IMG/VR virus record: IMGVR_UViG_2974729571_000001
Coordinates: 29,788 to 93,787 of that record
Origin: a virus
Taxonomy: Duplodnaviria; Caudoviricetes
Length of the DNA stretch: 64,000 bases
Strand: one strand, 5' to 3'
Numbering within the stretch: the first letter of the stretch is position 1; each line of letters begins with the position of its first letter. Under the pieces are notes generated by a model. That model saw nothing but the letters and a program-made list of their open reading frames with translations, searched no databases and had not been told where the DNA came from. A program made the translations under genes and the position numbers. Shown here piece by piece: positions 2,030 to 61,674 of this stretch.

Positions 2030-5000
2030 TACTGGACTTGGTATAGGTATCGGTATTCCTTTTAAAAACAATGCTCTTGGTGGAGATAAGCCTTATTTTC
2101 CACCGGAGCTTAAAGCTAGAATGATTGGTGTTTGGACTAATTATGGTAAGAAGAATACTGATGCTGATAGGAATATTATTAAGAATAAGATTCCTAATGC
2201 TGGCGGAGATTTAGAGATTCTAAATGCTGCATATAAATTAAATAGTGGATTCGGAAAATATAGTGAAGATTTTACTACTTGGACTAAAAATAGTAAGATA
2301 ACTTCTGTTGATTCCGAATCTTTTGATTTTGTTACCAATGTTAATTGGAATTTATTATATTATAAATCAAATATTGGAAAAGATATACCTTCTTTTAAAG
2401 TTCATATTAAACTTAAAGGAGAAGGCAAAGTATTTTATAATTATATAACTTCGGAAGGAGTATTTACTAATAAGGCTATTACATCAGAAGAATATGTGGT
2501 TCCTATTAGTTATAATACTAAATATACTGGTGAAACTCCTGTAAATTGTGGATTTTCTATTGGTATTACATCAGAAGAATGTAGTGGAACTATAACTCAA
2601 ATTCCAAACTTTGAAGATGCTTTTGTTACCGATGGTATAAACGATATGATTATTAGTCAAAAGACTCTTCAAGAAATGGGAGTTACTAAAGAACTTACTA
2701 TTGTTAGTATGATTCATCAGATATCTTGGAGAGATTCTGCTTCTGTTCCATTAACTAATTATATTAGAAATGGAGATACTTTTATAAGAAATTCTATTAG
2801 TAATATTGGTAAAACTGGAATATATGGTTATACATGTTTTAATATTAAAAATGTTAATTCTAGTGCTTCTAAAGTAATAAATAATATATTAGGAGATAAG
2901 AATGACTATATTGTAGAATATAAAGGAGATATATTATCGGAAAGATTTAGTGTACAAGGACATATAGATGGTAATGGTAATATACTTGAAACAAGTAGTG
3001 TTGCTCATTATTGGACTTTTGCTGTATTAGGTAAAGCTACCGAAGATGAGATTAATCTTATCATTGGTAACTATAATCTTGACCGTAGTCTTAAACCTGA
3101 TATATTATGTAATATAGGTAAGCAAGGTATTACTAATGATAATCATGCTGACTTTAATGATAAACTTGTTGATTATAGTGGTAATGGTAGAGATATTCAA
3201 ATGAATAATCTAGCTTGGAAAGGCGGTAGTGGTATTGCTGCAAAACCTTTTGAAACTATTAAGGATTATGCCATCGTGTCTGATGAAGCTAGACAAAAAC
3301 TTACTATTTATAATGAGTTTAGTTACAAAATAAAGTCTAATACCCCTAGTTACTATTGGACAGTACAATCTATTATAAGAGATAATACTTCATATCAAGT
3401 AACTATTATTACTGACAAAGATTGTTATTGGATTAATGCAACGACTTTTATCAATAGTGAAGGAAATAAAGAAAATATAAGAAAAAAATATCCAGTATTA
3501 GCTAATACACCTACACAAGTTATTATATGTGGATTAGACCAATTTGAATATCCCGAAGGTATAGAACCAACTAATGCTGTATCTTATGTTAATTTAGAAT
3601 ATGCAGGAGAAATAACTATTACATTTATTCCTAGTCATAAAGGAGGATTGTTGCTTGACGGAGTAAATGACTTCGGTAAGGTGACAGGAATGCCGATTTA
3701 CAAGGATTATACTATTATTGCTGATTATGAAAGATTTTATTTAGAACCAATTACAGGAGGTCGAGCATCTATTCTTTCTAAATCTTCTAAAGTTGGAGAT
3801 GGTTCTTTTATTTTTAATTTAGAAGACCAAGACGGAGGTAAAGCGTGTTATACATTTGGAGGAGCTAATGGTAATATATCCGATGATATAACAAGAATTA
3901 TTCGTTATCAAAGTAAGTATTATAATACTAAAACATTAAGTATTGGTACAGCAGAAGATAATGATTTTATGGTTCTTGGAAAAGTTCGTGAAGTAGATAG
4001 TAGACATTTCTATGGTGTTATCTATTCTCTCATGACTTTCCCATATAGTATGTCCGAGTTCTTGATAGAGCGTCAGTTGAAGAAGCACAAGCTGGGTACG
4101 CTGTATCCGGATATGGTGGAGTTTAGACCTGTTATAAAAGCTAATAATGACTATGAAATAGTTTATACTGCTATTATCAAACCTGATAATTGGCAAGAAA
4201 TATCTATTGGAGATTATGTAACAGTTGGTAAATCAGTAGCTATTCAAATTAAATTAAACCTTCCACTTGAAGTTACGAATGTATCTAGTAATTCTTTAGC
4301 TGATGTGTCTTTTTATAAAGAAGAGACTGGTGATAATGTTTATACTATATATGGTCGATTATTGGATGGTAAATCTCCTCAAAAGATAAACATCACAATT
4401 GACGAATACATCAGATTCGAAGATATTGTTCAGCCGTATCCATCTTTATTTACTCTTATTGATTATGATACAGAAGAGGTATATAGTTGGGGAAGTAAAC
4501 TAAAAGTAGGTGCTAGGTTTAAGGGTAACGTAGTTAACTTATTACCTAATATGTACGAATGGCAAGGTAATGTATTATATAATGGAGAAGTATTAGATTG
4601 GGGTATTAAGCCCGGAGTTGTTGCCAAAGAGATGGTCTTTAGTTGGAATATGCCATTTAAATATCTAATTGACAACAATGAACCAAAAGTAATCTTATCT
4701 CCTAGATTATTAAGAATACCCAATAGTTCATATAAGATTTTAGGTTATATCCCCGATATTAGCGGTCATGGTAACCATGGTAAGATAAACAATTCTGCTT
4801 ATGCAGAAGGAAGTGGAGTTAATGAAGATGGTTCATACCAATTTGATGGTGTAGACGACTTTGTTACTATTCCTACTATTGTTGGTGGTAAGCAGGTGTT
4901 GATGAAGGTGAATTGGGACAAGACAATTGCAGACGCTATCCTATACGACCAAAGAGGTTATCCTAATGAGTTTGCTATCTATAATGCTGATGCGGACAAT

Positions 5001-5300
5001 AATAATAATCCTGTTTTTGCTTATCAGGCAAGAAATAATGGGCAAACATATATTGATGGTATTTTGAATAAAAATATCAAAGCATCTGAATTGAGGGCTA
5101 TTACTCATAATATAACTATTACAAATGAATTAAGTACAGGGACAAATACATCTTCTCCTGTTATTGGTTCAAATAGAGTACACGATGCTTACTTTACTAA
5201 TATGGCATTGTACGACTTCATGCTCTTCGATGAAATCTCAACAGACGATAAGATTAAAGAGCTGAATGAGTATGTAGGTATAGAAGGCAATACAGAATGA
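2019..5300 (+). CDS. Tail fibre/receptor-binding-like protein with three LamG/concanavalin-like repeats
   Basis: Repeated FVTDGINDMI, LLLDGVNDFG and YQFDGVDDFV, plus DYSGNGRD and DISGHGNHG motifs typical of LamG-like lectin domains. Probable start ATG 2019. Confidence 0.65.
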   Translation: MGTNTGLGIGIGIPFKNNALGGDKPYFPPELKARMIGVWTNYGKKNTDADRNIIKNKIPNAGGDLEILNAAYKLNSGFGKYSEDFTTWTKNSKITSVDSESFDFVTNVNWNLLYYKSNIGKDIPSFKVHIKLKGEGKVFYNYITSEGVFTNKAITSEEYVVPISYNTKYTGETPVNCGFSIGITSEECSGTITQIPNFEDAFVTDGINDMIISQKTLQEMGVTKELTIVSMIHQISWRDSASVPLTNYIRNGDTFIRNSISNIGKTGIYGYTCFNIKNVNSSASKVINNILGDKNDYIVEYKGDILSERFSVQGHIDGNGNILETSSVAHYWTFAVLGKATEDEINLIIGNYNLDRSLKPDILCNIGKQGITNDNHADFNDKLVDYSGNGRDIQMNNLAWKGGSGIAAKPFETIKDYAIVSDEARQKLTIYNEFSYKIKSNTPSYYWTVQSIIRDNTSYQVTIITDKDCYWINATTFINSEGNKENIRKKYPVLANTPTQVIICGLDQFEYPEGIEPTNAVSYVNLEYAGEITITFIPSHKGGLLLDGVNDFGKVTGMPIYKDYTIIADYERFYLEPITGGRASILSKSSKVGDGSFIFNLEDQDGGKACYTFGGANGNISDDITRIIRYQSKYYNTKTLSIGTAEDNDFMVLGKVREVDSRHFYGVIYSLMTFPYSMSEFLIERQLKKHKLGTLYPDMVEFRPVIKANNDYEIVYTAIIKPDNWQEISIGDYVTVGKSVAIQIKLNLPLEVTNVSSNSLADVSFYKEETGDNVYTIYGRLLDGKSPQKINITIDEYIRFEDIVQPYPSLFTLIDYDTEEVYSWGSKLKVGARFKGNVVNLLPNMYEWQGNVLYNGEVLDWGIKPGVVAKEMVFSWNMPFKYLIDNNEPKVILSPRLLRIPNSSYKILGYIPDISGHGNHGKINNSAYAEGSGVNEDGSYQFDGVDDFVTIPTIVGGKQVLMKVNWDKTIADAILYDQRGYPNEFAIYNADADNNNNPVFAYQARNNGQTYIDGILNKNIKASELRAITHNITITNELSTGTNTSSPVIGSNRVHDAYFTNMALYDFMLFDEISTDDKIKELNEYVGIEGNTE

Positions 5301-5353
5301 AGAAAGACGAAATAATTGATTTAACTAACCCGATATTTATAAAAAATGAATAA

Positions 5354-5452
5354 ATGAAAATAATGCCTTATAAACTACTTAAAGTAGTTTATATAATACT
5401 TGCTATAATTGCAGTAGTTATGTATACATTAAGTTTAATATTTAATATTTAA
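5354..5452 (+). CDS. 32-aa single-TM peptide (MKIMPYKLLKVVYIILAIIAVVMYTLSLIFNI)
   Basis: Translated by hand. Fills the gap between genes; one hydrophobic helix. Confidence 0.45.
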   Translation: MKIMPYKLLKVVYIILAIIAVVMYTLSLIFNI

Positions 5453-5457
5453 AGATT

Positions 5458-5769
5458 ATGATTGATTACATTGTGTTTCCTATTGCTGATATAGATGAAG
5501 AGAAGTCAGCAAAGATTGATGAACTTAATTTAGTTCCTCGTAGTAATGTTAGTAAAGACAAAGTATTGATGAAGTGCCAACATTATAAAGAAGTGTTTCC
5601 TGAAAAAGTAACTAGAACAGTTACTACTGATGAAGAAGGATTGGAAATTATTAGTATTGAATATCCTTATGAAACTTATTCTAATGAAGCACTTGCTACT
5701 TTATTGTCAAGTCCTGAATGGAATTTTAAAGAAGATGAGGTAATAGAAGATTCCCCCATAGAGGAATAA
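5458..5769 (+). CDS. Acidic hypothetical protein (possible tail-fibre assembly chaperone)
   Basis: 103-aa ORF downstream of the fibre gene; function inferred from position only. Confidence 0.6.
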   Translation: MIDYIVFPIADIDEEKSAKIDELNLVPRSNVSKDKVLMKCQHYKEVFPEKVTRTVTTDEEGLEIISIEYPYETYSNEALATLLSSPEWNFKEDEVIEDSPIEE

Positions 5770-5788
5770 CATTACTTTTATTGCTTAA

Positions 5789-6004
5789 GCTGCTATTCGT
5801 CCTTATCAGGATAAACTTATCCAGTGCGAAATCGAGAGAGCGTTCACCGCAGGTATCAATTATGTCGATAAAAAGACTTGTAATGTTATCTATGGTGTTA
5901 CTTGTCTACCTAATGAGCCTACTACAACAGGTCTTGTTGGTAGAAATGCCAATGGTTGTCTACCGTGCGGATTTACTCAAACTGCTAGTACTCCTGCTAC
6001 ATAA
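5789..6004 (+). pseudogene. 5'-truncated gene remnant (AAIRPYQDKLIQCEIERAFTAGINY...TPAT*)
   Basis: 71 open codons with protein-like composition, directly preceded by in-frame TAA (5786-5788), with no ATG. Confidence 0.55.
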
Positions 6005-6031
6005 TATTACTAATCAACTAAAGAATAAGTT

Positions 6032-6547
6032 ATGTTACCTATTAATCAAGTTATACTGGGCGGAACAGACCCTTTGTTAAATACTGGAAGTCTTACCGAC
6101 CAAATCCAATATTTAGAAGAACAGAAACGACTTATTGAAGCTAGACAAAAACAGATTCAACAAGCTGCTAATGGACAACAAACTTTACAACAAGTTAGTC
6201 CTCAACAAACTGCTAAAGTAAGTGTTTGGGACTTGATTGATGCAGAGATTGAACCTCTTACTAATGAGCAAAGAAATATGCTTGCTACTAATGAAGAATA
6301 TGTAGCTAACTATAATAATCTTCAATCTATGGTTCAAGCAGAAGTTCTTAATCTAGTAAGAGCTAATATTGAAAATAGTCCGGAAGGTAAAACTCTGTTA
6401 GATAATCAACTAAAGTTAGTTAAGAATCTAAAGACTAGTATAATCGAGATGTCACAAAGAGAGATGCAATTGTTCAATGCTTTTAAAGAAGCTAGTGCAA
6501 AGAATCCTTCTCTTACTTATGAAGAATTTATTAAAACTATGAAGTGA
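6032..6547 (+). CDS. Gln-rich coiled-coil hypothetical protein
   Basis: 171-aa ORF with phage-typical codon usage. Confidence 0.75.
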   Translation: MLPINQVILGGTDPLLNTGSLTDQIQYLEEQKRLIEARQKQIQQAANGQQTLQQVSPQQTAKVSVWDLIDAEIEPLTNEQRNMLATNEEYVANYNNLQSMVQAEVLNLVRANIENSPEGKTLLDNQLKLVKNLKTSIIEMSQREMQLFNAFKEASAKNPSLTYEEFIKTMK

Positions 6548-6735
6548 TGGTAGAAGTTGCTGATGTTTATGTAGCTATTAATGCTCAATATCACGACTAC
6601 TGTGAACTATTCGAGAAATGGTTCGGAAAAGGAAACTTCGACGATATGATATTCGAGAGTGCTATCAGCTTTTGGTTCGATGATGTAGACTTCGGAGAAG
6701 ATAAACTCTGGAAATACTTTAATGAATTGAAGTAA
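6547..6735 (+). CDS. Short acidic protein, possibly a deletion-fusion remnant
   Basis: 62-63-aa ORF overlapping the upstream stop (TGATG) and followed by a terminator. Confidence 0.55.
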   Translation: MVEVADVYVAINAQYHDYCELFEKWFGKGNFDDMIFESAISFWFDDVDFGEDKLWKYFNELK

Positions 6736-6756
6736 TACAAGTTCTGTTATATTCCT

Positions 6757-6797
6757 AAAGAGAGATTACTAAATAATAGTAGTCTCTCTTTCTTTTT
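6757..6797 (+). terminator. Intrinsic terminator
   Basis: AAAGAGAGATTACTA-AATAA-TAGTAGTCTCTCTTT followed by CTTTTT. Confidence 0.8.
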
Positions 6798-6809
6798 AAA
6801 ATAAAGTCT

Positions 6810-6817
6810 TATATTTG
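6810..6817 (+). promoter_or_regulatory. Bacteroidota -7 promoter element (TATATTTG)
   Basis: TAnnTTTG match right after the terminator, about 20 nt before ATG 6838. No clear -33 element. Confidence 0.5.
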
Positions 6818-6837
6818 CACCTGTAATATAAAACTTA

Positions 6838-7011
6838 ATGCTTATGGGAATCTTAATGAAAGTGTTATTTGTTGCTGTAATAGCTATTACTATTATAGCA
6901 TTTGTATGGAAAGAAGCTACTAGTGTTCTTCCTGCAAAAGTTGTTACCTACATAAGAGTAGGAGGTGTGTTGTTAACTATTATTCTTGGTACTTTGTTAT
7001 TCTTGCTGTAA
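6838..7011 (+). CDS. 57-aa two-TM membrane protein (not in ORF track)
   Basis: MLMGILMKVLFVAVIAITIIAFVWKEATSVLPAKVVTYIRVGGVLLTIILGTLLFLL*. Ends 1 nt before the next ATG. Confidence 0.65.
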   Translation: MLMGILMKVLFVAVIAITIIAFVWKEATSVLPAKVVTYIRVGGVLLTIILGTLLFLL

Positions 7012-7012
7012 T

Positions 7013-7372
7013 ATGGACTTCGGGAATATACTTAGTGAGATTCTACGTACTACGGCTACTAGTTTTGATTTTGCGTTTGTAATCTGTGTAAATGTGCTAG
7101 CATATCTAGTAATTAAACTAGTTGACAAACTTAATGGAAACAAAGTAGTAAGTACTTGGAATAAAAGAGTAATAACTCTAGTATGTGCTTTAATAATGGG
7201 AGTAATATACTTCTCATTAAAGCTAGGAGATGTTAAGGTAGTACTTAATTCTATTATTCTTAGCTTCGTATTTTGGAGCTGGATTATGAAGCCAATATTG
7301 GCGTTCTTCAATATAGACTATCGAAAGTTTATAGAAGTTGAAGATAATGAACCTAATCAATATCCAAAGTAA
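7013..7372 (+). CDS. Putative holin (three TM helices, charged C-terminus)
   Basis: Start MDFGNIL at 7013. Three hydrophobic segments and a hydrophilic tail, a class-I holin-like topology. Confidence 0.55.
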   Translation: MDFGNILSEILRTTATSFDFAFVICVNVLAYLVIKLVDKLNGNKVVSTWNKRVITLVCALIMGVIYFSLKLGDVKVVLNSIILSFVFWSWIMKPILAFFNIDYRKFIEVEDNEPNQYPK

Positions 7373-7397
7373 GTACTATTAGTAAGATTAACAAGTG

Positions 7398-7426
7398 AGA
7401 GTCGACTAGAGATAGTCGGCTCTTTT
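7398..7426 (+). terminator. Intrinsic terminator with GAGA tetraloop
   Basis: AGAGTCGACTA-GAGA-TAGTCGGCTCT followed by TTT. Confidence 0.75.
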
Positions 7427-7659
7427 AGTATACACGCTCCTTTATGGGGGAATAAAAGTATGCCCCACCTTCCTACGCTTTCATAGAAGCTCACCATAGG
7501 ACTTTAATACCTTTCCTTAACTTACTATTATCCGACAGTATTGCGTGCCACCACGGGTCTTAAAATGCGTCACTTGTATAAAAATGTTTACAATGCGAAT
7601 ATCTGTAAGCTAGATAGCAAGCTAGATAAAAGTGCTGAATTAAAATTATTAGTAAAAGT

Positions 7660-10071: not shown

Positions 10072-13000
10072 TGGAAATAGTTAAAGAACTTAATAAAGAT
10101 GGAGGTTACGAATCTATTAAAAATGGTTCAATGACCCATGCTGTTAATGCTATGGTTTCTCGTGATGGTAATTCTATTCAGAATGAACAATCTATTGAGA
10201 CAATCATAACATTAGAAGAAAACGAAGAGATAGTCGGAGTTATCTCTTGTTCTGATGAAATAGTTATATTTACTAATAATAATAAGATTAGAAGATATAA
10301 AGAATCTACTAAAGATATTACCGAAGTTATTACTAATTGGAATTATCAAGGAGGTAAAGTTATAGGTACTTATACTTATAATGTAAATAATGAATTAATT
10401 GTTGCTATTACTGAACTTAATTCTAATGAAGATGTTCCTTTAAAAATAATCAATCTTAATAAACCTAATTATTTAGAAGGAGGAAATGATATAAAATATA
10501 CATTAGTTCCTAATACACCTAAAGCAAATATTAATAACTGGAAACTTGTATCAGGAAGTTCTATATATAAAGGTATATATAATTTCTTTATAAGATATAA
10601 GCAAGGAAGTGATTATACTGGTTGGTTTCCAATAGGAGCTCCTGTATTAGTATATGATTTTGATAACGAAAGCGTTGTTGAAGATAGTAGTTTCGGCTAT
10701 GACGATAGTAGTGGTAACCTTCCAGTTAATTATAAGATAGGAAACTTCGTATTTAAAGAAAGAACAAATTTAAGTACTGAAAAAGTTAATCTAAATATTG
10801 AGTTAGGATTACAAATAGATAATTCAGGTCTTAATTATACAGCTTATCAAATAGGCTACATAATCAATACTCAAAAAGGAGATACTAAAGTATATAATAC
10901 TTCTGATATAAATATAGGAACTAGTAGAATAACAATAGATGATGTTTATAATGAATCATTTAGTCTTGACGATATTACTAGTTCCTTCTTTAATTTGTAT
11001 AATGTAAAAACTATATGTAACTATAATAATAGATTATATGTGGCAAATTACAAAGAAGAAAATATTAATAGTCTTGTAAGTTCTATTGATACTAGTAATA
11101 TACAAGTTAGAATTAAAGATTTCAGAGGTAATAACGCTATTAAAGTTTATGCTAAAACAAGAAGTGTTGGTTCTTCAATAATTAATAATCCTAGAACCTT
11201 TGATATTGGTAGAGGTTATGTAGTTACTATTAAAGGACGTGCTTACGGAGATGGTACTGAATATAAAGAAGTTACTAGAAAGTTCTTTCTTACTCGTATT
11301 GGTAAGAATAGTTATGGTACTAAATGTCTAATGATTGCATCACAAGACTTTATTAGAGCTTTCTATAAAGATAGTAATTATGATAGCCATTCTACCCCAT
11401 TCTATGTTTCCTATCAAAATGCTAATAATCTATATGAACCAGCAGCTTTCGTAGTTATTAAACCTGATGATGAGAATTGGTATATATTAGAATTTAGTAG
11501 AAATTCTAACCCAGCTGATGTATATCCTAATGAATATTCTGTTATATCATCTTTAGGATTTGTAAGTCATCCTTATGTAAGATATGGACGTACTAATGAT
11601 TTCTTTACTAATACTCCTTATAGTGCTCCTGATATTCAAAGAGATTTTAATAACGATTTCAAAGTAGTATCTATTGAAGAATTTGATTTAAATATGGATA
11701 GTAGAGAAATTGTTGAACCTATGTGGTTCTATTTAGGAGATGTTACTATTGGAGAAAATACTTATAAATTAAAGTATGACCATTATAATCCTACTGACTA
11801 TTATTATTATAGATATGATATGTCTAGTGGTAGTCCAGTAGAAGTTGGTGTAAGGTTAAGAAAATCTTTTCAAACTGCTTATGTAGATTATCCTGAAGTA
11901 ATGCAGGAAATTCGTACTAAGTTTCCTAATTCACAAATAGTTCTTATTACAGAATATGAAACTGTTAATCCTAGTGGTGGTAATGCTGATGAACTTGCTA
12001 AATTTAGAGGTGAGAGTGTTGATGAAAATATAAGAATAGCTTATGATGTATCTAAACATAAATTTATTTTTTCAATTAAAGAAACTAATATAAGAGATGA
12101 TTATTATAAACGTAAATCAGATGCTGTATTAATAACCAATGCTGATGGAGAAACTACTAGATATACAGTAAATGAAATATTTCCTAATATATCTGTTACT
12201 TTCAATAATGAAGATAAATCTACTCAAGATTTAATTAATGAAATCGAAGGTATTCATAAAACTGTATATCGTTGGAAAGAAGATAGAGAACCAACAGAAG
12301 AAGATTTTAATATTAATGAAACTTATACTGTTGATTTCTATGATATAAGTAGTTTATCAGGAAATAAAGGTTCTACTAAAAGTTTTACTGATTTAAAAGC
12401 ATATCCAGTTGGTTATATTAAAGAAACAGTAGAAGAAGGTAATCAAACTATAATAACTGCTGAAAAAGAATTTATGATAGTTATACCTTTTATTGATTAT
12501 CTTAAAACAGTTTCTAATTACGATTATGACGGACATGAAAGATATCACATATATGATAGAGTAAGTGTTGAGAGTACATTAGCATTTGAAGGAATAGTAA
12601 AAGACTTATATATCTGTTTCCAAAAGGATACTAAATTCAATATGGACGGTGTAAGTAATTATAGTGCTTTACTTCTCGATATTCCTACTTTTGGTAGAAG
12701 TGACGCTTTAGCAATAAGTGAAGGAGGTGTTCGTTCTACTGGTAATGAGTTCTTTGCATTAGGTAGTAGTAATCAATATAAAGAACTTCGTGTTGATAAA
12801 CCAGCTGGAGATTATCTTAGTTATGCTTTTGGTTTTGCTTCTCCTAAGATATTAGATAGTCAAACTAAACCAGAAGATACAGAGTTCTATGGAAATATCT
12901 ATAAGCATGCTATTAACTATTGTGTATATAACTTCTTTATTCATTATGTTTTTCCTAACGGCAATATAACTGATGGTGTTCGTATTGCTAATAATATGAC

Positions 13001-39622: not shown

Positions 39623-39654
39623 CTAACTACTTAATATTACAACTCATGTAGAAA

Positions 39655-39691
39655 GCCGGATTGCTTGTGAAAGTAGTCCGGCTTATTGTTT
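39655..39691 (+). terminator. Intrinsic terminator of the late module (GTGA loop)
   Basis: GCCGGATTGCTT-GTGA-AAGTAGTCCGGC followed by TTATTGTTT. Confidence 0.8.
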
Positions 39692-40268: not shown

Positions 40269-40312
40269 TAAAAAAAAGAACTATCAACAGTATTGCTACT
40301 ATTAATAGTTCT
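40269..40312 (-). terminator. Intrinsic terminator ending the minus-strand module (GCAA loop)
   Basis: Minus strand AGAACUAUUAAUAGUA-GCAA-UACUGUUGAUAGUUCU followed by a U-run. Confidence 0.85.
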
Positions 40313-40505: not shown

Positions 40506-40545
40506 ATAAAATAAGAGTACCAGTATTACTACTAGCACTCTTATT
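40506..40545 (-). terminator. Terminator/attenuator hairpin (GUAA loop)
   Basis: Minus strand AAUAAGAGUGCUAGUA-GUAA-UACUGGUACUCUUAUU followed by UUAU. Confidence 0.65.
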
Positions 40546-59857: not shown

Positions 59858-60178
59858 TTATTTAATAGGAGCATCTGACCGCTCCGCTTCGCTCCGCTTA
59901 TTCCCCCGTAGAGGAGTTGTGAATTGTTTAACCTTTTGCTTAATTTCATCTATAATAGCTTTATTCTTATCAATACTATCGTTACTATAAAGATTATAAC
60001 TATGTGTTTCATCAATATTTCTATTAATATCAAGAACAAATAGATACATACTAATATAAGAAGTATTGTTAAGATTACAATTAGTATAAAGGTCACTAGA
60101 GAGTTTAGTACTATACAACAGACTAAGCTGTATTTTCTGTAACTCTCTAAACAATTTAGTAAATTCTTTCTTATTCAT
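59858..60178 (-). CDS. Hypothetical protein
   Basis: 106 aa. The C-terminal tail (PLRGNKRSEAERS) is dictated by the overlapping DNA motif and hairpin. Confidence 0.6.
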   Translation of the reverse strand: MNKKEFTKLFRELQKIQLSLLYSTKLSSDLYTNCNLNNTSYISMYLFVLDINRNIDETHSYNLYSNDSIDKNKAIIDEIKQKVKQFTTPLRGNKRSEAERSDAPIK

Positions 60179-60210
60179 GTCAGTATATTAGTTTTAATTA
60201 ATAATCATAG

Positions 60211-60235
60211 AAAAAGGAGCAGACGCTTCTGCTCC
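60211..60235 (-). terminator. Intrinsic terminator
   Basis: Minus strand GGAGCAGA-AGCG-UCUGCUCC followed by U5. Confidence 0.8.
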
Positions 60236-60268
60236 AAGCTAAATAATTAATATTTATAAAAGTCCTAA

Positions 60269-60342
60269 TTCTATCTCACGACAGTAATTTAAATTAGGGG
60301 TAAAAATTAGATTAAGTTCTGTTCTATCTCACGACAGTAATT
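60269..60342 (-). repeat. Two 21-bp direct repeats, each a CUGUC-GUGA-GAUAG RNA hairpin
   Basis: TTCTATCTCACGACAGTAATT at 60269-60289 and 60322-60342. Confidence 0.85.
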
Positions 60343-60377
60343 AATAAACTTGTATTAAACACAAATACTATGTATTT

Positions 60378-60462
60378 ATAGCTGACATTTTACGAAGAGG
60401 ATTTCCCTTACTTCAACCATTTGGTCAATGTTTCAACTTAGATTAGTCATCATCAGAGCTAT
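60378..60462 (-). ncRNA. Type I hammerhead ribozyme
   Basis: Minus strand AUAGCU-CUGAUGA-U-GACU(AAUCUA)AGUU-GAAA-CAUU[insert]AAUG-UC^AGCUAU. Full catalytic core, stems I-III and a GUC cleavage triplet. Confidence 0.75.
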
Positions 60463-60575
60463 CAAGAAAAGAAATAGTGCGATTCTCACGAACAGCACTA
60501 TTATAATTCCATAAAACCAATAAATACTATTCTCACGAATAATAGATATTACAATACGACAAATTTAATTTTAGT

Positions 60576-61148
60576 TTAACTAAAACAGATAAAACAAAAT
60601 TGGCAATTACTTATTATATATATCTTTGTATAATCTACACAATAAAAATCAGGACAATCTTTAAGAAACGATTCACATATTCTACGAGCTTCACCTTTAC
60701 TATTACCAGAGTAAAGAGTTTTAGCATTACCATTAAAAGACTTTCTTAGCTTATCATTCTTGTCTAGGAATACAAGATGATTTTCAGAACAATAGAATAC
60801 AGAATAAATCGGAGCTTTACTAGCTTCATATTTAGCAAGAAGTTTATCATAAGATTCTTTAGCACTGTCTCTCATATCACTAATATATTTGATATAAGAA
60901 AGCATAATACTATCCCATTGTTCAACAGCTTTAATCTTATCTTCAATAGAATACTTACCATCAAGAATATCTTCAAGAAGATTATTCAATCCTTTAACAT
61001 TAAGATTTTCTAAATCTTCAAGAATAGCTTTATTAAATTCTCCTTTAATAAAAGCCTTACGATAATCTTCTTTAATAGAATCAATAAGATTAACATCAGA
61101 ACCACTAGCTAAAGCACAAGCTAAAATAGCAGATATAATATCTTTCAT
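60576..61148 (-). CDS. Hypothetical protein
   Basis: 190-aa ORF whose 3' UTR contains the ribozyme cluster. Confidence 0.65.
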   Translation of the reverse strand: MKDIISAILACALASGSDVNLIDSIKEDYRKAFIKGEFNKAILEDLENLNVKGLNNLLEDILDGKYSIEDKIKAVEQWDSIMLSYIKYISDMRDSAKESYDKLLAKYEASKAPIYSVFYCSENHLVFLDKNDKLRKSFNGNAKTLYSGNSKGEARRICESFLKDCPDFYCVDYTKIYIISNCQFCFICFS

Positions 61149-61174
61149 TATAATAAATTTTTAAATTAGACAAT

Positions 61175-61228
61175 AAAAAACTCTACTAATATTACTCTAG
61201 TCTCACGACCTGAATAATCTTAATAGAG
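61175..61228 (-). terminator. Long imperfect terminator with GUGA loop
   Basis: Minus strand CUCUAUUAAGAUUAUUCAGGUC-GUGA-GACUAGAGUAAUAUUAGUAGAG followed by U6. Confidence 0.7.
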
Positions 61229-61287
61229 TGAACCGACATTTATTTAACCCTTTGTCAGATATTAATTAAATAGAGTACGTATCGGCA

Positions 61288-61674
61288 TTATACTAAACGT
61301 AAAATAATAACTGCAACAGCTCCTAAAGCAATAAGAGAAGCAATAACAAAACCAACAGTATTATACTGTCTTTTAGCTTTAAGCTCTTCATAGGCTTTAT
61401 TAGCTCTGTCTAATTCAATCTTGAGTTGTTCAACAGAATTACTAAGAGCTTTATTATTAGCTTCCAATTGATTCTTTGCAGAATTTAATTTAGAAGACAT
61501 ATTACGAAGTTCTTTATTTTCATGACAAACCCCTTTATACATAGTCTTATAACCATCAAGATTAGCATTAGACTTTTCATTAGATTTACGTAGACGAATA
61601 ACTTCTTTCTTTAATTCGTTAACTGTTGGACGTTTCTTACTAAGAACATCGACATCTTTCTTTAATTCGTTCAT
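61288..61674 (-). CDS. Coiled-coil protein with C-terminal membrane anchor
   Basis: Heptad pattern, then VGFVIASLIALGAVAVIILRLV. Confidence 0.7.
   Translation of the reverse strand: MNELKKDVDVLSKKRPTVNELKKEVIRLRKSNEKSNANLDGYKTMYKGVCHENKELRNMSSKLNSAKNQLEANNKALSNSVEQLKIELDRANKAYEELKAKRQYNTVGFVIASLIALGAVAVIILRLV

Follow-up and report, generated by a model that had tools for sequence, protein, structure and literature searches.

Hairpins that share a GUGA loop and a nearly invariant apex are repeated on the minus strand of a short intergenic region of a crAss002-like phage, on both sides of a variant hammerhead ribozyme, and they belong to a wider family that recurs beside ribozymes, tRNAs and tmRNAs in phages and mobile elements of the Bacteroidales. 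We propose that these hairpins are stable RNA end-caps that delimit ribozyme-cut RNA units, one of which would be a GibS-like RNA of 173 nt. This function, which we infer from comparative analysis, is assigned a probability of about 45%. The stretch of DNA analysed here (64,000 nt, referred to as the window) comes from a phage of the Jahgtovirus type, and the region of interest is 89.5% identical to Bacteroides phage crAss002, which infects B. xylanisolvens. The human gut harbours few viruses as abundant as the crAss-like phages, whose early regulation and non-coding RNAs are largely uncharacterized. Since crAss002, a close relative, and its host Bacteroides xylanisolvens have both been cultured, the predictions made here are directly testable.

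The gap that contains the hairpins (60179-60575) is 397 nt long and separates two early genes of unknown function on the minus strand, P0001 (60576-61148) on the upstream flank and P0002 (59858-60178) on the downstream flank. Neither protein has an informative Pfam or PHROG match, and in the sense of transcription both genes are located upstream of those encoding the helicase and the DNA polymerase. Read along the minus strand, the gap contains hairpins HP1 and HP2, a hammerhead-like element, a weak A/U hairpin, hairpins HP3 and HP4, and an intrinsic terminator. The predicted fold of the sense strand has a free energy of −86.9 kcal/mol (z −3.2) versus −66.7 kcal/mol (z −2.6) for the antisense strand. 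Fifty-odd related loci were gathered by means of the upstream protein, 28 distinct orthologous spacers were aligned, and 82 pairs that cover all of the elements were imposed on the alignment. Pairing was retained in 98% of the 2262 pair cells, compared with 35-46% when the partners were slid by 1-3 columns, and compensatory changes were found in HP1, HP2 and the terminator. Across relatives the spacer itself keeps 78-99.8% identity, whereas that of the flanking proteins is as low as 38-57% (59858-61148 compared with loci L001 and L455-L491), and the two flanks assort independently, P0001 being 98% and P0002 42% identical in L460, L462 and L466, with the reverse in L480, L482 and L490. Judged from these alignments, the spacer behaves as a conserved recombination joint. 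Even at the orthologous locus L493, where the flanking proteins are only 36% identical, two GUGA hairpins, the hammerhead, one further GUGA hairpin and the terminator are all kept. The most conserved element of the region is not a protein but a 400-nt module of ribozyme and repeated hairpins, which maintains ~90% identity while both of the neighbouring genes are replaced.

The original prediction described four minus-strand hairpins with a UC-GUGA-GA apex, two on either side of the ribozyme, and a fifth that caps a terminator, and all five are present. HP1 (60519-60550) has an 8-bp core stem (60544-60525) that can be extended to 60550-60519, with its loop at 60536-60533. Three structural variants of HP1 occur among relatives, all of which retain the GUGA loop; two of its pairs are changed on both sides, including the loop-closing pair, which is U-A rather than C-G in 11 of 28 orthologues, and four pairs are changed on one side. 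HP2 (60473-60502) consists of 4 bp, a U.C mismatch and 8 bp beneath the apex GUUC-GUGA-GAAU, and it is located 10 nt upstream of hammerhead stem I. Its cells are 100% paired in the 28 orthologues, with two compensatory pairs (U-A/C-G and A-U/G-C). HP3 (60322-60342) and HP4 (60264-60298) contain the two copies of a 21-nt repeat (60342-60322 and 60289-60269), and these are identical, as had been claimed. In HP3 the repeat forms a 5-bp stem (CUGUC/GAUAG) with a GUGA loop (60337-60324); among relatives a G-U pair is replaced by G-C, and one relative has a GUAA loop. In HP4 the corresponding inner stem (60284-60271), invariant in the 28 orthologues, stands on a 7-bp outer stem (60298-60292/60270-60264) with a 7-nt asymmetric internal loop, which is 94% paired. 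In locus L479 (about 2290-2330) HP3 and HP4 are collapsed to a single copy by deletion between the identical 21-mers, and two copies are therefore not strictly required. HP5 (61181-61228, minus strand) is a long GUGA-capped hairpin followed by U6 that lies between two early genes, one gene upstream of the gap. A sixth family member, with the apex GCUU-GUGA-AAGUAG and no clean U-tract, is found on the plus strand (39652-39685) where the rightward gene block ends; the 93.8-kb genome contains no further GUGA-capped hairpin of 6 bp or more.

The clustering of these hairpins is far beyond chance. The sequence TCGTGAGA is present in 8 copies in the window versus 1.0 expected, and none of 100 shuffles reaches 8; five of the copies fall within 935 nt on one strand and are all hairpin apexes, and the other three are in coding sequence with no hairpin. 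With the family model R1, HP2 is the best match in the window (30.3 bits, E 6e-6), followed by HP5 (22.8 bits, E 0.0011), the plus-strand copy at 39652-39685 (22.6 bits, E 0.0012) and HP1 (17.6 bits, E 0.037). The model misses HP3 and HP4, in which the apex is one pair shorter, and both were assigned to the family by eye. G-U pairs, taken in the original prediction to fix the strand, are present in every one of the hairpins, and together with the compensatory changes and the co-orientation with genes they support an action of the hairpins as RNA on the sense strand. The covariation called for by the original prediction is likewise present. Its further claim that the four hairpins of the gap lack a strong U-tract stands for HP1 and HP3, which have no proper U-tract, and needs qualifying for the other two, since HP2 is trailed by the U/C-rich run UCUUUUCUU, which is not conserved in relatives, and UUUU occurs two bases past the outer stem of HP4. 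Long terminators elsewhere in the window are also capped by GNRA loops, those at 7409 (plus strand) and 46770 (minus) by GAGA, that at 40529 (minus) by GUAA and that at 40296 (minus) by GCAA, a preference not seen in a Bacteroides chromosome sample.

The element between HP2 and HP3 (60378-60462, minus strand) was identified as a variant type-I hammerhead by a rule-based search, which demands that all 6 pairs of stem I and all 4 of stem III form and that UH be present, and by comparison with relatives. It consists of a 6-bp stem I (60462-60457/60383-60378), the core CUGAUGA (60456-60450) followed by an extra U, a weak stem II (60448-60435), the core GAAA (60434-60431) and a large branched stem III (60431-60385), and cleavage is predicted to occur after C60384. 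All ribozyme stems are invariant within the genus in the 28-spacer alignment. The hammerhead was recovered in four lineages with the unrelated stem I sequences AUAGCU, CUCUAA, CUUGUA and CUACAA, each of which has a perfect complement. Among relatives G is never found as the cleavage base H17, which is C, A or U, and the free core position N7 can be U or C. Between lineages, GACU/AGUU in stem II is replaced by GGCU/AGCC, and AGG/CCU in the inner stem IIIb by AGU/ACU. Stem III of this subtype is branched in the window, is enlarged by ~85 nt in the L139 group and in L198 takes the form of a long hairpin interrupted by an internal loop. The element thus shares with type-I hammerheads (Rfam clan CL00010) the conserved CUGANGA and GAAA cores, an NUH triplet and three helices that covary between lineages, but differs from them in the U that follows CUGAUGA, the weak stem II and the large branched stem III. 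No Rfam hammerhead model matches the window at gathering score, or the region 60100-61350 at E≤10. By comparative criteria the hammerhead is genuine, with self-cleavage being predicted from its conserved architecture. Directly past stem I is the weak A/U hairpin (60363-60377, minus strand), which contains the 9-mer CAUAGUAUU (60372-60364) and is invariant in the 28 orthologues.

A terminator scan located the intrinsic terminator at 60211-60235 on the minus strand, with an 8-bp stem, an AGCG loop and U5, 33 nt ahead of the next start codon. Two of its pairs show compensatory changes (CAG/CUG to AGG/CCU). The hairpin core GCAGAAGCGUCUGC within it (60216-60235) is also found in an unrelated phage group (L139, L151 and L155; minus strand about 8660-8690 in L139), and in relatives the stem of this type of hairpin covaries while the loop region GAAGCGUC is kept. 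The predicted cleavage site and the terminator together would define a 173-nt RNA (60383-60211, minus strand) with a 5′-OH end, a weakly structured, A/U-rich leader of ~46 nt, HP3, HP4, a linear stretch and the terminator. A ribozyme-released RNA of about 170 nt, as envisaged in the original prediction, is a reasonable expectation from the arrangement of these elements. The layout of GibS (RF04182; PMC7366714) agrees with that of the predicted RNA, and both GibS and FopS (RF04319; PMC11697453) begin with a long single-stranded 5′ stretch, which is followed by hairpins and, at the end, by the hairpin of a terminator. A FopS sequence is reported from a Bacteroides-targeting phage (PMC11697453). 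Unlike FopS and GibS, however, the RNA of the window would owe its 5′ end to a ribozyme rather than a promoter, and the FopS terminators of B. neonati have GGGA or GGCG loops, not GUGA with GAAUAG. Neither RF04319 nor RF04182 matches anywhere in the phage genome, and neither gives a match at E≤10 in 60100-61350, where the only Rfam match at that threshold is a weak one to BTnc231 (E 1.7). The 9-mer CAUAGUAUU was considered as a FopS seed and rejected, as the likeness is at chance level and a FopS profile gives no match in the spacer but chance matches that are as good or better in other parts of the genome.

Pattern scans of IMG/VR defined a family, which includes HP1 and HP2, with a variable lower stem of 6-10 bp under the apex GGUUC-GUGA-GAAUAG, in which the pairs are, in order from the loop, C-G, U-A, U-A, G.U, a G.A mismatch and N-G. 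A shorter form with one pair less, GUC-GUGA-GAUAG, also exists. In IMG/VR viral contigs, 85 of 95 exact-apex matches have at least 6 flanking pairs. The 185,579 prokaryote genomes searched gave 122 exact-apex matches, of which 70, from unrelated taxa and with 0-1 flanking pairs, resemble chance occurrences, and 33 have at least 5 flanking pairs and are mostly from Bacteroidales (Prevotella, Bacteroides, Parabacteroides, Alistipes and Muribaculaceae). The open reading frames downstream of these Bacteroidales copies look phage- or mobile-element-like as judged by their first residues only. Across 65 non-redundant hairpins, each of the central lower-stem pairs (columns 5-9) shows all four Watson-Crick types; the invariance of the apex in this set is fixed by the search pattern. 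The family is rare in host chromosomes (TTCGTGAGAA is weakly above control in five host genomes), and a CGUGAG loop is absent from the 63 tetraloop terminators of a 400-kb portion of a Bacteroides chromosome. The element is therefore not simply a host terminator cap. The extended motif was not found in crAss001, DAC15, phi14:2 and B40-8, the cultured phages with transcriptomes that were examined besides crAss002, no Rfam family matches the hairpins of the window or those of 13 other hairpin-rich loci, and a full-text literature search for the motif string returned no relevant paper.

Members of the family are co-oriented with the neighbouring genes, by 54:8 for those upstream and 43:9 for those downstream, and are typically placed 2-30 nt upstream of hammerheads, tRNAs or tmRNAs, or ahead of a U-run. 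In a set of 121 non-redundant copies, a T-run of at least 4 follows 61, and a tRNA follows 14, beginning 2-13 nt downstream in 13 cases and 48 nt downstream in one. CUGANGA is found within 60 nt of 15 of the 121 copies, a figure to which one scan pattern contributed by selecting for CTGATGA. Where a hairpin closely precedes a phage tRNA, GUGA also predominates among the loops (22 of 71), and here the closing pairs vary, which points to selection on the loop itself. Complete hairpin-ribozyme-tRNA units occur in L148 (minus strand, about 3700-4020), L149 (plus, 6979-7201) and L203 (plus, 416-670), each with a GUGA hairpin, a canonical type-I hammerhead, the hairpin variant GGUUU-GUGA-AAAUAG, a tRNA-Gln(UUG) that begins 2-3 nt past the variant hairpin, and a GUGA hairpin with a U-run. 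In other contigs of crAss size, a GUGA hairpin and hammerhead are located directly upstream of a permuted (two-piece) tmRNA in L195 (minus, 2127-2483) and L172 (plus, about 4250-7430), and in L149 (plus, 6990-7200 and 12111-12325) a hairpin-preceded hammerhead is upstream of a tmRNA that lies further downstream. A hammerhead in such a position may make the 5′ end of the permuted tmRNA. Terminator-type hairpins, hammerheads and processed small RNAs are known kinds of element. What appears to be undescribed is the conserved apex, the association of the family as a whole with ribozymes, tRNAs and tmRNAs, and the subtype of hammerhead, and the recurrence of the hairpin beside ribozymes and tRNAs points to an undescribed RNA-processing or small-RNA module. 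That a single type of hairpin ties together hammerheads, tRNAs, tmRNAs and small-RNA-like seeds suggests a common way of cutting and stabilizing phage RNAs.

The common denominator of these contexts is a very stable hairpin just 5′ of an RNA end or cut point, and it is for this reason that we favour a role of the hairpins as end-caps. Bacteroidales phages and mobile elements would, on this proposal, use a sense-strand hairpin module as a very stable cap for RNA ends. In the window the intergenic region would be transcribed together with the early genes and the hammerhead would cut after C60384. The ribozyme would then form the end of the upstream RNA, and the hairpins behind it, HP2 and HP1, would block 3′ exonucleases. 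The downstream product would be the 173-nt RNA, with its 5′-OH end, HP3 and HP4, ending at the terminator (60235-60211), in a layout that recalls Bacteroides trans-acting small RNAs such as GibS, and it may have a regulatory role. In other phages, where the hairpin is followed by a tRNA (which would be cut by RNase P), a hammerhead or a U-run, it would delimit an RNA unit on the 3′ side. The non-random clustering, the strand-specific structure, the covariation and the contexts of the family all support such a role. Several observations count against it. Protection alone leaves 13-15 conserved apex bases unexplained, including the step from a G.U pair to a G.A mismatch; the type-I cut is ~80 nt beyond HP2, so that the immediate 3′ end would be the body of the ribozyme; and the stem of HP3 is only 5 bp. 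In addition, the predicted RNA has no significant similarity to FopS or GibS and no target complementarity beyond chance in the phage genome, where the longest complementary run is 15 nt, within the shuffle range of 12-17 nt.

The same contexts bear on the other functions that the hairpins might have. They could be ordinary, weak intrinsic terminators or attenuators between early genes, built with a stable loop that the phage prefers; HP5 and the plus-strand copy are located at gene ends, and HP5 has U6. The T-run after half of the family, the GNRA loops (GAGA, GUAA and GCAA) of the other terminators of this phage, and the UUC-GUGA-GAA hairpin in which the Rfam consensus of the B. thetaiotaomicron small RNA BTnc231 ends, are all consistent with this. 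However, a stable hairpin with an immediate U-tract, as a terminator should have, is found in HP5 and at 60235-60211 and is weak or absent in HP1-HP4, where HP1, HP3 and HP4 are without a proper U-tract and the run after HP2 is not conserved. The other half of the family also has no U-run, and many copies are 2-13 nt ahead of a tRNA or 6-10 nt ahead of a ribozyme, which requires that they be transcribed through. We consider termination an improbable general function for these reasons. A role as an accessory to the ribozyme is slightly less probable again. The hairpin might insulate folding of the ribozyme from the flanking RNA, or, given that stem I has no more than 6 bp, provide the hammerhead with a tertiary contact, and GUGA loops are known to dock into the minor grooves of helices. 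A GUGA hairpin is indeed located 15-22 nt (from loop to stem I) upstream of the hammerhead in all four lineages and of canonical hammerheads in other phages, but the same hairpin also precedes tRNAs, tmRNAs and plain genes, the hammerheads of L404, L271 and L231 have no such hairpin, and HP3, HP4 and HP5 are too distant from the ribozyme to assist it. The least probable of the functions weighed here is one at the level of DNA, whether as a joint for recombination, in the manner of the PeSL cassettes of T4-type phages, as a hairpin promoter that the virion RNA polymerase would use, as in N4, or as replication iterons. The far greater conservation of the spacer than of its independently assorting flanks would fit a DNA element, as would the recombination of the HP3/HP4 repeats to a single copy in L479 and the position of the hairpins directly ahead of RNAs that are to be made. 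The crAss virion polymerase prefers single-stranded templates and has no known promoter (10.1101/2020.03.07.982082), which also leaves room for such an element. The PeSL cassettes (PMC2839356, PMC4122927) resemble the spacer as conserved intergenic stem-loops among small early genes whose flanks are swapped, whereas the unit of the window is 400 nt and includes a ribozyme, and its G-U-rich, strand-specific pairing indicates a function in RNA. The frequent G-U pairs of the family (such as U-G in 34 of 65 hairpins at one position) would be A-C mismatches on the other strand, and copies of the motif are also present in large non-crAss contigs and in the prophage-like parts of host genomes. TAnnTTTG, the −7 box of the host, precedes only 18 of the 121 copies, with no fixed spacing, and the TAAATTTG box ahead of HP1 is not conserved; a host promoter upstream of the hairpins was rejected on these grounds, and a replication origin because there is no GC-skew switch near 60 kb.

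The conserved apex that protection of RNA ends leaves unexplained could be a specific handle for an RNA-binding protein of the host or the phage, with the arrays acting as platforms, decoys or sponges, or in antitermination of the nut or put type. We regard this as unlikely as the principal function, though less so than termination, assistance to the ribozyme or a role in DNA. The apex is nearly invariant while the lower stems vary freely, the GUGA loop is retained when its closing pair changes, several copies occur per locus, and the host terminators sampled do not carry a GUGA cap. About half of the copies precede a U-run, with too little space ahead of the next gene to fit a promoter, and read-through must therefore occur there. 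These points favour specific recognition, as does the preference for GUGA over other stable loops. Set against them, no partner protein was identified among the neighbouring genes, which have no Pfam or PHROG function, and the search pattern itself accounts in part for the invariance of the apex in the large family set. The element occurs in very different phages and mobile elements, which makes one phage protein common to all of them unlikely. The boxB-like antitermination sites put forward in the original prediction are not supported by what was found. A lambda-type nut site has a five-bp stem, a GNRA-like pentaloop and a boxA upstream; it occurs once in each early operon and is served by a cognate N protein. 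Both boxB of lambda nut and HK022 put resemble the hairpins of the window in being short, GNRA-type and, in some cases, tandem hairpins of early phage transcripts. The window hairpins, by contrast, have a true GNRA tetraloop and an extended conserved apex on a variable lower stem, there are five to six copies of them, no annotated N-like protein is encoded near the locus, and elsewhere the family is directly ahead of tRNAs, tmRNAs and ribozymes, not placed once in each operon behind a promoter. Recognition of the apex by a protein may in any case be complementary to, and not a rival of, the capping of RNA ends. A bolder version, about which we are similarly doubtful, is that the apex with its G.U/G.A step is a dedicated handle across Bacteroidales phages that marks small RNAs cut by ribozymes or RNase P for a host factor, the arrays being deployed as decoys or guides that would reprogramme host translation or RNA decay early in infection.

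Some members of the family are accompanied by small-RNA-like sequences. A FopS-like seed is ahead of 4-8 of the 121 copies, directly so in L350 (E 3e-6), L234, L319 and L347. In L350 (about 6270-6345) the hairpin with the seed GUGUUUUUCAUGGUA... directly ahead of it is followed by a U-run, and in L234 (about 5080-5170) the same arrangement is situated between two tRNAs. The hairpins of L350 and L234 look like FopS-type small RNAs of phages or mobile elements with a GUGA terminator. Separately, in 12 of the 121 copies, versus ~1 expected, the heptamer TTGTC[AG]T ends no more than 45 nt ahead of the base of the hairpin, and in the window it is found at 60562-60556, ahead of HP1. It could be the remnant of a promoter, or a seed that pairs with AUG by means of G-U wobble.
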